The position numbers were made by a program, and so were the translations under genes. The notes under the pieces were generated by a model. The model did not search any database. It was not told the origin of the DNA and was given only the letters and a program-made list of their open reading frames with translations. 64,000 nucleotides of DNA, taken from NCBI GenBank assembly GCA_031291875.1, contig JARLIE010000183.1, forward strand, positions 65,356-129,355, read 5' to 3'. Origin of the DNA: Minisyncoccota bacterium. GTDB taxonomy: Bacteria; Patescibacteriota; Minisyncoccia; Phycocordibacterales; UBA2100. Shown here one piece after another: positions 8,130 to 16,997 of this stretch (its first letter is position 1; each line of letters begins with the position of its first letter).

Positions 8130-8467
8130 CGAATCAGTAGCGACGCGAAGATTCCTGCGAAACCGAGCCCGAGCCCGATCGTCGCGCCCGCCGTCGGAAA
8201 CTGATGAAACACAAGGTAGGTAATGATCGGTTCCACGATCACGATCGAACCGACCGATATCGCCGTTACGATCCAGATATTTTTCAGCTGTTCGTAGCCA
8301 AGCATGTACCCACCGACGAGGCAGCCGCCGGCCGCCGCAATCAATATGAACATGGTCCAGAATGCGAAAGCCGCTCCCGCTTCCATGTTTTTCGAGGCGA
8401 GTAGTTCGGCGATAATCGAGAATGTTTCGCCGGCAAAAACAAGCACAATCGCGAGAGCGAGATACAT
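8126..8467 (-). CDS. Small four-TM membrane protein (SMR/DMT-like)
   Basis: 113 aa with four hydrophobic helices and a Glu in TM1. Family assignment is tentative. Confidence 0.6.
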   Translation of the reverse strand: MYLALAIVLVFAGETFSIIAELLASKNMEAGAAFAFWTMFILIAAAGGCLVGGYMLGYEQLKNIWIVTAISVGSIVIVEPIITYLVFHQFPTAGATIGLGLGFAGIFASLLIR

Positions 8468-8540
8468 GGCGGGCGCTGAGGGAATCGAACCCCCACTGGC
8501 GGTTTTGGAGACCGCTGTTCTACCACTAAACTAAGCGCCC
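8467..8540 (-). tRNA. tRNA-Trp(CCA)
   Basis: Reverse complement GGGCGCTTAGTTTAGTGGTAGAACAGCGGTCTCCAAAACCGCCAGTGGGGGTTCGATTCCCTCAGCGCCCGCCA. CCA end is encoded. Confidence 0.95.
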
Positions 8541-8771: not shown

Positions 8772-10142
8772 ATGGATGAGATTCAAGAGTCTCAAACGCT
8801 TTGCGTACCGGAGATGCTGTTCACCGAAACTTTGCGGGAAGAATTAGAAAAGGCCATGAGCGAATGGCGCATGGTTACCTATGCGATCCACGGCTTCATC
8901 TTCCGCTTTTACCAGGCGGTGGTGCCGCCCGATCTGGCCAAGTTCCTCGAAGACACATTTGCTTTGCATCTCAACACGTTCGTTGAATTCCCCGACCGAT
9001 GGTTTGCGGCGGGTGGCCTAAGTGTTGTCGTGGAGGAAACAAACCATTCGCTTTTCTCGGACGAGGGGAAGGCAACACTCCGTAGGCTCGAAGTGGTGCT
9101 GGGCAACATCAGCCAATGCACCGGCTACGAGTTTCTATTCCACGCGTCCGAGAACGACTTTCTGGCTCCGAAAAAGGCGAATCGGAAGCAGATTCATGTC
9201 ATTCTCGGCGCCGTTCCTCCGGGAAGCTCAGGATACGTGCTGCGCGATAAGCATCCGGAAACCGGAGAATCGTTCATCATGCAGAACGTAGCTCAGACTC
9301 GCGTCAAAGGACCAGCACCGGGCTGGGGGCACATCGTCAACGCCAAAGATGGCAAGCCAATTGCGCAGATTATCGGTCGGAACTTCTATTTGTTCATTCC
9401 GTCCGAGGGAATCGGCATGAATTTGCTGTCTACCGAGGAGGGCGCCGGGCTCTTCGAATTGGCACTTCGCCTTGCGTGGAACACGTACATCGCCGGCGTG
9501 ACAGCTCCGGAAGAAAAAGTGATCGAGAATCAAGATGACGTGAAGAGGTATCTGGCCCTGATTGGCTCGATAGAACCGGGAGACCTTATGGCAAAAAAGA
9601 TAGCACTGGAGGATGAAATCGAAAACCTTCGTAAAAGCTACCAAAAAAAGCTCAACCTCCTGCGTCACTTGAACACACTTTCTATCGACAGTATGCGACG
9701 AGCACGGAAGCTGCTCGAGAATATCGAGCCATGGCAGCCGGTACTGTCGCACCCGCTGCTTGATCAGATGAGCGTCGTCGCGCAAGCACTACACGTGCGG
9801 ACGAAACCGCTCGTATACGACGGTCATCATCTCGGCGCGTACGTCATAAGGTTCGATTGCAACCCCCTGACGGAGCACTGGAAGGTGACGATCTACTGCG
9901 CTGGCGAGTCGCTACACCCAAACAGTATTCCGCACCCACATATCGGTATGAGTGGCAGTATCTGTTTCGGCAATGTAGGACTGATTCTCGACGAAGCACT
10001 CGTCGAACAGCGTATTCCTGATGCCGTTTTGCTTTGCCTGCGATGGCTTGCCGACGGCTACGACGAAAGTGTTGCGCGGTACAAACTCAGCGAATGGCCG
10101 CGCGTCGAAACTTCCCCCAGCGAAACAAAGGAGACGGCATGA
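8772..10142 (+). CDS. Multidomain protein: unknown N-terminal region, coiled coil, C-terminal prokaryotic E2/UBC-like domain
   Basis: HPHIGMSGSICFG has the same His-to-Cys spacing as the E2 motif HPNIxxxGxICL. Coiled-coil segment KIALEDEIENLRKSYQKKL. ATGA-coupled to the E1 gene. Confidence 0.7.
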   Translation: MDEIQESQTLCVPEMLFTETLREELEKAMSEWRMVTYAIHGFIFRFYQAVVPPDLAKFLEDTFALHLNTFVEFPDRWFAAGGLSVVVEETNHSLFSDEGKATLRRLEVVLGNISQCTGYEFLFHASENDFLAPKKANRKQIHVILGAVPPGSSGYVLRDKHPETGESFIMQNVAQTRVKGPAPGWGHIVNAKDGKPIAQIIGRNFYLFIPSEGIGMNLLSTEEGAGLFELALRLAWNTYIAGVTAPEEKVIENQDDVKRYLALIGSIEPGDLMAKKIALEDEIENLRKSYQKKLNLLRHLNTLSIDSMRRARKLLENIEPWQPVLSHPLLDQMSVVAQALHVRTKPLVYDGHHLGAYVIRFDCNPLTEHWKVTIYCAGESLHPNSIPHPHIGMSGSICFGNVGLILDEALVEQRIPDAVLLCLRWLADGYDESVARYKLSEWPRVETSPSETKETA

Positions 10143-10789
10143 GCGAGAAGCTCAATCACGCGCATCACGCAAGCATCTTCCACCCGCGCGATGCGAAGCC
10201 CACTACCATCATCGGCGTGGGTGCAGTAGGGAGCCTGGTAGCAGACGCCCTGTCCAAGGTGGGGGTGAGAGATATCACGGTCTGGGATAACGACACGGTC
10301 GCCTCTCACAACTGCTCGATGTCGCTCTATCGTCCACAGGATGTCGGCAAGTTGAAAGTCTGCGCGCTCGCGGAAATACTCGAGCAGCATTCGGGCATCG
10401 TTCCAAAGACTCACGAATGTGACTACCGCGGTGAGGCGCTTCGACACACGAGCGTGGTTGCATGCGTCCATAGCATGCCGGCACGCAAATTGATCTGGGA
10501 CTCCGTTCTAATGAATCCAAGTGTCGATATTTTCTGCGACTCCCGAACGGGCGGGGCATACATTGAAGTGTACGCCATCAACCCGTGCGACCGCAGGGAC
10601 ATCGATCGATACCAATCGCTGCTCTTCGAGGAATCGGAGCGCACCGAGCACTCGTGTGGTAATCACGGCATCATCTACGGCTCGCTCACTGCCGCTTCGG
10701 CGGTTGTGGCGAACCTTACGCGCTACTGGAAAACTGGCGAGAAACAGTGGCGCTACGCGTTGCGCAGTGATATGCTCTCGCCGGCTTGA
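10139..10789 (+). CDS. ThiF/MoeB/E1-family adenylyltransferase
   Basis: IIGVGAVGS nucleotide-binding loop, ITVWDND, DVGKLKV, DSR and a candidate catalytic Cys in HSCG. SD AAGGAG precedes the ATG at 10139. Confidence 0.88.
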   Translation: MSEKLNHAHHASIFHPRDAKPTTIIGVGAVGSLVADALSKVGVRDITVWDNDTVASHNCSMSLYRPQDVGKLKVCALAEILEQHSGIVPKTHECDYRGEALRHTSVVACVHSMPARKLIWDSVLMNPSVDIFCDSRTGGAYIEVYAINPCDRRDIDRYQSLLFEESERTEHSCGNHGIIYGSLTAASAVVANLTRYWKTGEKQWRYALRSDMLSPA

Positions 10790-10808
10790 AACGAGGAGTA
10801 AACCAGCC

Positions 10809-11045
10809 ATGAAAGTGAAGGTCGAAATCACTCCGGTCACGGGAAATCCCCACGAAACCGAGGTGGAGGTACCGGAAGGCTCGTCGGTGGAGGAAATCCT
10901 GAAGGCCGCCAATTGCGGCACGAAGGGCTTCAACCTCTTCCTCAACAACGAACCGGTGCAAGCGTCGTCGAAAGTCGACAGCACCATCACCCTCAAAGCG
11001 GTCGAGATCAAAATCACCGCGACTGAGCGCGTTGCAGGTTCCTGA
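10809..11045 (+). CDS. Ubiquitin-like / MoaD-ThiS beta-grasp protein, 78 aa
   Basis: MKVKVEITP...EVEVPEGSSVEEILKAAN...LFLNNEPV...ITATERVAGS fits a beta-grasp pattern. SD GAGGAG. This is the 3' part of track ORF 10521..11045. Confidence 0.78.
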   Translation: MKVKVEITPVTGNPHETEVEVPEGSSVEEILKAANCGTKGFNLFLNNEPVQASSKVDSTITLKAVEIKITATERVAGS

Positions 11046-11071
11046 TTCGCAGCTATCGCTGCAACATGTAA

Positions 11072-11110
11072 AAATTGGCGATCACCATCGTGTGATCGCC
11101 AATTTCTTTG
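11072..11110 (+). terminator. Intrinsic terminator-like hairpin after the Ubl gene
   Basis: AAATTGGCGATCAC-N6-GTGATCGCCAATTT followed by CTTT. Confidence 0.65.
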
Positions 11111-11177
11111 GGAAACCCTCGGTTTCCCAAATCCTTCCTCCACGGGAAACCGGTAGGTTTCCCGACCCCTTCCTCCT
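11107..11177. repeat. Tandem pair of REP-like hairpins
   Basis: GGGAAACC-ctc-GGTTTCCC and GGGAAACC-ggta-GGTTTCCC, each followed by CCTTCCTCC. Confidence 0.7.
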
Positions 11178-11220: not shown

Positions 11221-11379
11221 CTACTTTTTCTGCTCCTTGTGGACCGTCTGGGCGCGGCACCACTTGCAGAACTTCTTGATCTCGATTTTGCGCTCTACGA
11301 GCTTTCGGTTCTTGCGCGACCAATAGTTGACGCGGCCGCACTTCGTGCACGCGAGTTTGATGAGCTGATCCTGCGACAT
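11221..11379 (-). CDS. rpmG: 50S ribosomal protein L33, zinc-ribbon type
   Basis: Hand translation MSQDQLIKLACTKCGRVNYWSRKNRKLVERKIEIKKFCKWCRAQTVHKEQKK, 52 aa. Below the ORF-track length cutoff. Confidence 0.93.
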   Translation of the reverse strand: MSQDQLIKLACTKCGRVNYWSRKNRKLVERKIEIKKFCKWCRAQTVHKEQKK

Positions 11380-11413
11380 AGTCGCGGCACTATAGCGCAC
11401 GCCTAAGCTTCGG

Positions 11414-15780: not shown

Positions 15781-16997
15781 GCGGGCACTATAGCATGAGA
15801 CAAAAGTCGTGAAAAAGTCTCTCGAAAGTGAGTAATTTCTTTTCGTGTCGTCGCGCGTCCGAGCGAAATTCGGAGCGTGTTTTCTGCTCGCCAAAGCTCT
15901 GCGCCAAGCGCTTCTACGACATGTGAGGCTTTTTGTCCTTCGTTGCAGGCGCTCTTTGTTGATACGGCGAAGCCCTCATGGTCGAGCGCAAGCGTTAGAT
16001 ACTCGGAATGTATGTCCGGAATGGAGATGTTGAGCATGTGTGGCAGGGCGTGCTTAAGATCTCCATTGATAACAAGTCCTGGAGTATTCTCGGAGAGCTC
16101 ACGTGCAAGCGCATCTCGAAGCGTTTTGAGTCGCTTGGATTCGTCGTGACGCTCCCTTGCGACAAGCTCAAACGCCGCGGCAAAACCGACAGCCAGTGCG
16201 ACATTCTCCGTGCCGGCTCGCAACTCTCGCTCCTGCTTGCCTCCAAGCACGACTCCGGCAACGTTGGTGCGATTCGAAAGATATAAACAACCGACTCCGT
16301 GTGGTCCGTACAATTTCGACGCGCTGATTGAAAGCAGGTCAACCCCGAGCGAGTGTGCAACAGTCGGCTCGTACAGCGGCGCTTGCCCGGCATCCGCGTG
16401 GAAAATAACCCGCGTTCCGTGCTTTTCTTCGTGCAACCGGATCGCCTGCGCGATTTTACCCAGAGGCTGCACACTACCGATCTCGTTGTTTGCCCAGCCG
16501 ACCGAAACGAAAACGGTTTCAGGTTTCAAGACAGCGACAATCGACTCCGGGGTAATGATCCCCTTTTCGTTCGGCGAAACATGCGTAACAGAGCCGCCGA
16601 GTCGTTCTATTTCAGAGAAACACTCAAGCACCGACGAGTGTTCGATCGCGCTCACGATCCAATGGGTTCCATCGAGCGAACCGGACAGGGTCCGACCTTG
16701 TCCGCTAAAACCATCGACGAGCATTCGACGCGCGAATCCGACAATAGCCAGATTATTTGCCTCCGTAAGCCCCGATGTAAAAACGAGCTCGCGTGCCTTG
16801 ACCCCAAGCAACAGGGCGATCCGTTCGCGAGCGTCATTGAGCGCGTTCTTTGCAGCAACGGCTTCCGCGTGAATAGCGCCGGGGTTGCCGACCAGCTTCT
16901 CGGCTTCGCGCATCGCCTCAGCTGCTTCGTGCAAAAGAGGGGTCGCGCTCGCGTGATCCAAATACACTCGTGCGGGAGACGACTTTGAAAACCACAT
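15762..16997 (-). CDS. iscS: Cysteine desulfurase (IscS/NifS family)
   Basis: Motifs YLDHASATP, FTSGLTEANN, SASKLYGP (PLP Lys), RAGTENV, STKSAC (catalytic Cys). Start ATG at 16997. Confidence 0.9.
   Translation of the reverse strand: MWFSKSSPARVYLDHASATPLLHEAAEAMREAEKLVGNPGAIHAEAVAAKNALNDARERIALLLGVKARELVFTSGLTEANNLAIVGFARRMLVDGFSGQGRTLSGSLDGTHWIVSAIEHSSVLECFSEIERLGGSVTHVSPNEKGIITPESIVAVLKPETVFVSVGWANNEIGSVQPLGKIAQAIRLHEEKHGTRVIFHADAGQAPLYEPTVAHSLGVDLLSISASKLYGPHGVGCLYLSNRTNVAGVVLGGKQERELRAGTENVALAVGFAAAFELVARERHDESKRLKTLRDALARELSENTPGLVINGDLKHALPHMLNISIPDIHSEYLTLALDHEGFAVSTKSACNEGQKASHVVEALGAELWRAENTLRISLGRATTRKEITHFRETFSRLLSHAIVPAWTSRS

Follow-up and report, generated by a model that had tools for sequence, protein, structure and literature searches.

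A three-gene ubiquitin-like cassette with a serine-ended Ubl in Patescibacteria-type genomes

Activation of ubiquitin-like proteins (Ubls) is commonly held to depend, almost without exception, on a terminal glycine. ThiF-family enzymes that act on non-glycine ends are known, MccB acting on Asn and Cap2 on Ala or Gly. The question of which ends can be activated is raised anew by a cassette in a Minisyncoccota bacterium (assembly GCA_031291875.1, contig JARLIE010000183.1, positions 65,356 to 129,355; this whole stretch of 64,000 nucleotides is called the window). The cassette encodes an E2-like protein (gene 1), an E1 enzyme (gene 2) and a Ubl whose last residue is serine (gene 3). An original prediction, made from the sequence of the window, had described a minimal E2-E1-Ubl operon that tags proteins and is possibly anti-phage; the serine C-terminus, an altered E1 active site and an origin from a four-gene family with a JAB peptidase were absent from it. 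We give an even chance to the reading that this is a stand-alone, JAB-less three-gene cassette that tags proteins by direct activation of the Ser terminus.

The serine-ended Ubl and its two enzymes

Gene 3 had been described as a 78-aa beta-grasp protein, and the profile comparisons agree. It matches the SAMP2 profile with a score below the cut-off (E 5.6e-4), and the profile of its own family matches solved SAMP2 at E 2.4e-5, its best Ubl match; gene 3 is a predicted SAMP2/ThiS-like beta-grasp protein. In the window it ends E-R-V-A-G-S-stop. Among 52 complete loci collected without a filter on the ending, the Ubl ends in GS in 50, in SS in one and in GG in one. Counted as distinct Ubls, the terminal residue is Ser in 49/50 of a filtered set and in 23/23 additional ones (22 GS, one SS), that is in 72/73, the additional 23 having been found with a profile built from Ser-ended sequences and hence biased. 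Of the 72 Ubls with a terminal Ser, 70 have Gly at the -2 position. The family thus matches beta-grasp relatives without the C-terminal Gly of ubiquitin-like Ubls. The terminal Ser is written with TCC, TCG, TCA, TCT and AGC codons, ahead of all three stop codons; with five Ser codons and three stops in use, selection acts on the residue. Readthrough of the stop codon was rejected as the origin of the Ser end, given the use of all three stops and the differing DNA beyond them.

An hhalign comparison with the Ubls of the related four-gene cassettes places G77 on the first Gly of their GG ending (probability 98.5), so that Ser78 occupies the terminal position, the one that the E1 activates. The sister four-gene Ubl (L066) ends in TARVAGG where the window has TERVAGS. 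Two Ubls end in S-S, from which the removal of one residue would not expose Gly, and the tails that follow GG in the Ubls of JAB-bearing cassettes are variable. Tailless Ubls ending in KGN or KGA occur in two four-gene cassettes in which the JAB-like gene does not fit the JAMM motif pattern used (L006:4157-5029, L162:1801-2370); they may represent a parallel shift away from a Gly end.

Gene 2 matches Pfam ThiF (E 3e-13) and carries the GxGxxG motif and the Cys in HSCG (C173) that the original prediction had named. UBA5 and ThiF are its best matches among solved structures (UBA5 at E 2.5e-11). Sites were assigned by alignment to MoeB, in which Arg73, Lys86 and Asp130 are named as active-site residues (PMC12355090; here and below, statements on published work refer to the accessible parts of the cited sources). 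K73, R116 and C173, the last being the predicted catalytic Cys, are kept in 50/50 cassette E1s, and the P-loop is conserved. The E1s of the Ser clade differ from the others at two positions: 50/50 lack the N-terminal R-Q arginine, which 27/31 other E1s keep, and 50/50 have S in place of Q62, which 28/31 keep (a comparison set that includes three truncated type-A, or three-gene, loci). N6 and H176 are invariant in the Ser clade. The shifted positions would line the ATP and tail site, and the lost arginine is, as we assume, the equivalent of the N-terminal Arg of MoeB, itself taken to be an active-site residue.

The Mg-binding D111, equivalent to Asp130, is present in 49/50 cassette E1s. The exception is the window copy, which is the sole one of 81 E1s without Asp at this position. 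Its codons at 10469-10474 read His111-Ser112 and those of its three nearest relatives (P0156-P0158) His111-Asp112, which suggests that the Asp may have moved by one residue in this E1 sub-lineage and then been lost in the window copy. His111 is unlikely to be a sequencing error, since run X2 has a contig that spans both codons with zero differences, though possibly from the same sample.

Gene 1 consists of an N-terminal region (residues 1-241), a long helix or coiled coil (254-316) and a C-terminal domain (about 319-445) with an HPH-x7-C398 loop. In its AlphaFold (AF2) model (predicted local distance difference test score, pLDDT, 91.3), the N-terminal part is an alpha/beta region, followed by a helix of 63 residues and the C-terminal domain. 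For the latter, the best PDB matches listed by Foldseek are almost all E2 enzymes (best E 0.03, none reaching 0.001), and VIA-align superposes it on the E2 chain 3fn1_B with Z 6.5 and a root-mean-square deviation of 3.3 A over 109 residues, a score level with those of RWD-fold chains. Identity to E2 structures is low (about 14-18%), and no descent is claimed. Because numerous weak matches concur and the active-site motif is present, we call this domain a predicted UBC/E2 fold with C398 as predicted catalytic Cys, the fold that the original prediction expected. The HPN-like motif lies about 8 residues before the Cys. The match to HPNIxxxGxIC claimed earlier stands in its UBC spacing and fails in its third residue, which is His and not Asn. 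Canonical E2 hallmarks are an HPN motif before the Cys and a downstream Trp, both absent in Cap2 (Ledvina et al., bioRxiv 2022.03.31.486616). An HPN-like loop and a downstream Trp are common to gene 1 and the canonical UBC E2s.

H388, H390, C398, G400 and Y430 are invariant in 130/130 full-length homologues of gene 1, and W425, the Trp downstream of C398, is kept in 121/130; the conserved Cys called for by the original prediction is thus borne out. Homologues form 197 clusters at 50%, which together with the conserved gene order points to more than chance. Gene 1 has no match in Pfam, NCBIfam or PADLOC. In the N-terminal region only G186 and Q199 are invariant (H124 occurs in 85/130 and H142 in 77/130), and a role as a built-in peptidase was rejected since no catalytic residue is invariant. 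A fold search with this region gave at best Z 5.2, to a weak class-I-glutamine-amidotransferase-like arrangement, with Foldseek E of at least 0.23, and the Atlas structure search yielded no named match. Short contigs of RNA runs X3 and X4 cover parts of gene 1, a weak signal that is no proof of transcription and no measure of expression level. At two loci (L056:1057-2619, minus strand; L099:3-1286, plus strand) the E2 C-terminal domain runs in frame into the E1, by natural fusion or frameshift, and at L056 the E2 N-terminal part is a separate open reading frame (ORF). Two or three E2-like genes, or tandem cassettes, are seen at L006, L014, L047, L096 and L128.

Three-gene loci and their four-gene relatives

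Loci were found by degenerate-motif scans, and a profile was then used to pick true members. The scans returned 13 viral, 70 genome and at least 121 metagenome stretches, of which many matched by chance; the motif pattern catches 98/153 homologues and the metagenome scan is a lower bound, so the locus set is a sample. Of the 57 high-scoring loci longer than 1.4 kb, 52 have the complete E2-E1-Ubl order and five are cut by contig ends, confirming that homologues of the three genes co-occur. No JAB was detected in 55 high-scoring cassette loci (0/55), as had been noted for the window, and no conserved fourth gene or regulator surrounds the three-gene cassettes. A JAB profile matches 3/37 host genomes and is absent from the other 34; two of these JABs belong to distinct four-gene cassettes, and the remaining one has E2, E1 and Ubl genes of its own beside it.

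The three-gene loci come mostly from small Patescibacteria-type genomes. The 37 host genomes measure 0.6-1.6 Mb and include some labelled Gammaproteobacteria or Binatia (L016, L021, L027, L062, L083 and others); these labels are probably wrong, because the genomes are just 1.0-1.6 Mb and similarly small ones turn up in the phylum draw around G465. The closest named relatives of the window E1 are from Kaiserbacteria, Paceibacterota and other Patescibacteria-labelled genomes, in keeping with the candidate phyla radiation genome assumed at the outset. The cassette is rare: a draw of 400 genomes from the phylum yielded a single further full-length three-gene E1. The cassette E1s are only 33-48% identical to the window E1.

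Related cassettes of four genes (Ubl, E2, JAB, E1) occur on viral contigs, in other small-genome bacteria and in larger bacteria. Their E2 and E1 belong to the families seen in the three-gene cassettes, and their Ubl is related. What sets them apart is a retained JAB, an E1 that still has the N-terminal Arg and Q62, and a Ubl that mostly carries GG and a variable tail. An E1 tree of 88 rows has a branch that sets the 55 three-gene E1s apart from the rest, with a support of 99 in the SH-like approximate likelihood ratio test (SH-aLRT); two four-gene cassettes are their sister (95). By this tree, in which they are nested among four-gene cassettes, the cassette E1s descend from the four-gene JAB-containing family. 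The JAB was thus probably lost and not gained, a direction that is unproven because the tree is a quick one with a midpoint root. A three-gene Ser cassette coexists with a four-gene JAB cassette in each of three genomes, G064 (L036, L066), G465 (L016, L215) and G484 (L051, L216); in G064 and G465 the four-gene cassette is the sister lineage in the E1 tree.

Among cultured phages, the E2 domain of gene 1 has no match. A four-gene-type E1 matched 82 phage records, and in two of these the neighbours seen are distant ones only. Flavobacterium phage Fpv3 (L249:2704-4636) and Xanthomonas phage PhiXhv-12 (L250:1256-4630) each encode a related E1 whose annotation reads thiamine biosynthesis protein. 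It comes after a JAB-like gene in Fpv3 and, in PhiXhv-12, after an 892-aa protein that gives a faint E2-domain match (E 0.005). Records of Bacteroides phages with a match to the E1 number 29.

The locus in its genome

The layout first described, with three co-oriented genes, an ATGA overlap (of genes 1 and 2), a closing hairpin and borders at tRNA-Trp and rpmG, is confirmed by the ORF, tRNA and repeat data (Table 1). The ribosome-binding sites claimed with it are present before genes 2 (AAGGAG, 6 nt upstream) and 3 (GAGGAG), and gene 1 has a weak AGGGA only. The closing hairpin is a perfect 14-bp inverted repeat (11072-11105), is not among the predictions of a terminator scan, and is followed by a second hairpin (11107-11131). 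Two imperfect 32-nt direct repeats, each palindromic, lie between the closing hairpin and rpmG (11110-11176). The 59-aa ORF at the right border has no NCBIfam match at a strict 1e-20.

Table 1. Positions in the window of the cassette genes, the E2 loop and the neighbouring features
Feature	Positions	Strand	Source
Gene 1, E2-like, 456 aa	8772-10142	+	ORF list
Gene 2, minimal ThiF/UBA5-like E1, 216 aa	10139-10789	+	ORF list; Pfam ThiF
Gene 3, single beta-grasp Ubl (predicted), 78 aa	10809-11045	+	ORF list; SAMP2 profile matches
E2 active-site loop HPHIGMSGSIC, H388-C398, predicted catalytic Cys	9933-9965	+	Sequence, homologue alignment
Two tandem hairpins in the gap between cassette and convergent rpmG, likely terminator(s)	11072-11131	.	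Inverted-repeat search
tRNA-Trp, left border of insertion interval	8467-8540	-	tRNA call
rpmG (L33), 59-aa ORF, right border of insertion interval	11221-11400	-	Sequence reading

The window sits on a 207-kb contig of a 1.63-Mb assembly that is 90.4% complete; genus relatives measure 0.6-1.1 Mb. For 21/29 of these relatives the distance from rpmG to the downstream tRNA-Trp is 19-906 nt (3/29 have no tRNA-Trp within 1.5 kb and 5/29 are cut by contig ends); in the window the two are about 2.7 kb apart. Gene 1 is absent from 60/60 relatives searched. The widened gap and this absence identify the cassette as a lineage-specific insertion at a variable rpmG-trnW site, with a host-like content of guanine and cytosine (0.55 in the cassette vs 0.54 in the window); no att-like or terminal repeats were found.

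The genome holds one ThiF-type E1 and one such Ubl, and its sole JAB-fold match is RadC. The original prediction had stated that no thiamine or molybdenum cofactor genes flank the cassette. This holds genome-wide for ThiG and MoaE, neither of which was found in the 90.4%-complete genome; the prediction had omitted an IscS/NifS-like cysteine desulfurase at 15828-16967 (minus strand), 4.8 kb from the cassette. That desulfurase may serve an ORF on contig C38 that is putatively MnmA-like by its motif. No desulfurase homologue was found in any other cassette locus fetched. Cassette flanks consist mostly of ordinary genes: PADLOC matched 7/144 flanking proteins from 41 loci, mostly in single domains and with no background control (four of 148 ORFs, cut by contig edges, were left out), and only L039 has a restriction-modification-like neighbour pair.

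Known systems, competing explanations and meaning

On the features tested, the cassette is a known kind of system and a conserved family set apart from Bil, Bub, cyclic-oligonucleotide-based antiphage signalling (CBASS) and 6d/PRTRC. It would work like Bil or UFM1-type cascades and appears to be a member of none of the four, which upholds the earlier view that its architecture is unlike the described types. Neither this family nor a bacterial Ubl ending in Ser was found described in the literature compared, which also included Gong 2024 (PMC11601603) and PMC11354881, most subscription journals and supplements being outside its scope. Table S4 of Millman, on JAB-less Bil subtypes, is likewise outside that scope and may bear on novelty.

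Bil type I/II (BilABCD) resembles the cassette in its separate Ubl, E2 and E1 genes, its catalytic Cys and its lack of an E3. However, BilD is a multidomain IAD-AAD-CYS enzyme (Ye 2024, PMC11601596; Chambers 2023, 10.1101/2023.09.26.559546) whereas the cassette E1 is a single domain, and the Bil operon has the JAB peptidase BilC, of which the cassette loci have no counterpart. The cassette differs further in its canonical-like E2 loop behind a 315-aa extension, its E2-E1-Ubl order and its Ser-ended Ubl. Among the matches listed (the best 25 of 32 for the E1) there was no BilB or BilD profile, and BilA appeared at E 0.012 only. Millman 2022 and the Hör 2023 preprint mention Bil subtypes that lack a JAB or have just one Ubl domain.

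Operon class 6d/PRTRC likewise has a stand-alone minimal E1, a small Ubl and an E2-like protein, and its Prok-E2_D domain (PF14460) carries a G-x-x-C-x-G-N micro-motif in common with gene 1. The 6d E2 lacks the His before the Cys and has a conserved one after it, and the class includes a JAB (with JAB-N) and an alpha-helical protein (Iyer 2006, PMC1779556). In gene 1, by contrast, H388 and H390 are invariant and no conserved His follows C398, and neither accessory protein is found in the cassette loci. Prok-E2_D and PRTRC profiles gave no match for gene 1 or 38 homologues, PRTRC_ThiF scores 32.9 bits against the E1 (cut-off 144.75), and hhalign to one PF14460 member gave a probability of 1.7% over 12 columns; remote homology is possible.

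Bub type I/II (6e) also performs bacterial E1/E2 conjugation, and its type II is typically JAB-less. Bub relies on Tyr/Ser oxyesters and has a DUF6527 protease (Ye 2024 preprint, PMC11601596), whereas in the cassette both Cys are invariant in place of the Cys-less Bub E1 and E2, and a fourth gene is missing. Cap2 of type II CBASS (6b) is an E2-E1 fusion without an HPN motif that acts on a CD-NTase (Ledvina 2022, bioRxiv 2022.03.31.486616), whereas the cassette genes are separate and have no conserved CD-NTase or effector neighbour. PADLOC E1-E2 matches cover about 65 residues of the Rossmann part only. The best matches for E1, E2 fold and Ubl are, respectively, UBA5 of the eukaryotic UBA5-UFC1-UFM1 system, canonical UBC E2s and SAMP2 of the archaeal UbaA-SAMP2 system. 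All three systems activate a terminal Gly.

If the cassette tags proteins through its Ser terminus, the E1 would adenylate the C-terminal Ser of the Ubl directly, the Ubl would pass by thioester from Cys173 of the E1 to Cys398 of the E2, and the E2 would hand it to a target with neither an E3 nor a deconjugase. The N-terminal region and coiled coil of the E2 would choose the target, and the tag would be effectively one-way. A fuller version has a Patescibacteria-type lineage dropping its deubiquitinase, fixing Ser in place of the terminal Gly and remodelling its E1, with an E3-free, irreversible seryl-linked tag of three proteins as the outcome; we rate it somewhat below an even chance.

Several points weigh against direct use of Ser. 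Binding and catalysis are deduced from sequence and models. The structural scores of the E2 domain are modest (Z about 6.5; Foldseek E of at least 0.03), and an inactive RWD domain does as well in VIA-align (Z 6.8) as the E2 chain. The register of the Ubl ends may slip, given A or N at the terminal-Gly position in some four-gene Ubls; the 23 additional Ubls carry the bias described, related loci are not independent, the E1 tree came from a short search, and the host genomes are incomplete, so that a peptidase could be missed. Gly is usually required, since in Bil a change of the terminal Gly to Ala abolishes defence (Millman 2022 preprint). The cassette E1s have neither an equivalent of MoeB Arg73 nor the N-terminal Arg. 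As to the window copy, loss of the Asp130 equivalent impairs ATP-Mg binding in UBA1 (PMC12355090); this E1 may be impaired, with little or no activity even in a working family, and the window cassette may work poorly for want of the conserved Asp.

The same cascade could run with the terminal Ser as a one-residue pro-piece, which a host peptidase encoded elsewhere removes before the E1 activates Gly77. The Gly at -2, the RadC protein of the window genome and the processing of Bil and Bub Ubls ahead of activation (Ye 2024, PMC11601596; Chambers 2023, 10.1101/2023.09.26.559546) speak for it. We nevertheless regard it as improbable: the register puts Ser and not Gly at the activated position, the two S-S ends would stay without Gly, extensions vary in the JAB-bearing relatives whereas Ser is fixed here, and 34 of the 37 host genomes have no cognate JAB. 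It is also quite improbable that the cascade is degenerate, either as a non-adenylating, non-covalent complex throughout the family or by decay of the window copy alone. The clade-wide loss of phosphate-binding arginines in the E1 would fit this, as would His111-Ser112 in the window E1 alone, beside His111-Asp112 in its nearest relatives, and the absence of gene 1 from the relatives. Yet both Cys, K73, the P-loop and, with the one exception, D111 are fixed in a clade of such divergent E1s; all three reading frames of the window are intact, and the RNA-library contigs over gene 1, weak as they are, point the same way.

A sulfur-carrier or small-molecule pathway, in which the Ubl forms a ThiS/ThiF-like thiocarboxylate or is placed on a lipid, nucleic acid or metabolite, is in our view very improbable. 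The nearest relatives of Ubl (SAMP2/ThiS) and E1 (ThiF/UBA5) and the nearby desulfurase favour it, but an E2 with an invariant Cys is always present alongside. Of the ThiS/ThiF and MoaD/MoeB relays, the partner synthase (ThiG or MoaE) is missing from the window genome; other cassette loci fetched have no desulfurase and no conserved fourth gene, and the presumed MnmA-like ORF could account for the desulfurase here. Sulfur relay is an unlikely function, and a role in stress or conflict is more likely than one in metabolism. The last alternative concerns function and is compatible with the chemistry of direct Ser activation: a Bil-like anti-phage system tagging a virion protein. For it speak the patchy spread, the insertion at a variable interval and the precedent of Bil. 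Phage defence finds no direct support in the context, however. Flanks are mostly ordinary with no conserved regulator, the few PADLOC matches have no background for comparison, related four-gene cassettes sit on viral contigs, and Bil requires its JAB for defence (Hör 2023 preprint). The anti-phage role first proposed is thus unsupported by the neighbourhood survey, and we hold it unlikely.

With Ser fixed at the terminal position, matching E1 changes and the loss of a peptidase, the family offers a direct test of the rule of a near-obligatory Gly in a set of three small proteins. Its E2s are a further bacterial E2 family, one whose active-site loop is of canonical type and which Pfam, NCBIfam and PADLOC overlook; it is found in reduced genomes, and the four-gene form also on viral contigs. 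The family bears on the origin of E2 enzymes and on what streamlined cells retain, and a working set could become an orthogonal tagging tool. If Ser is indeed activated directly, a seryl-linked tag would resist Gly-specific isopeptidases, among them the JABs that phages carry and those of the system's own ancestors.

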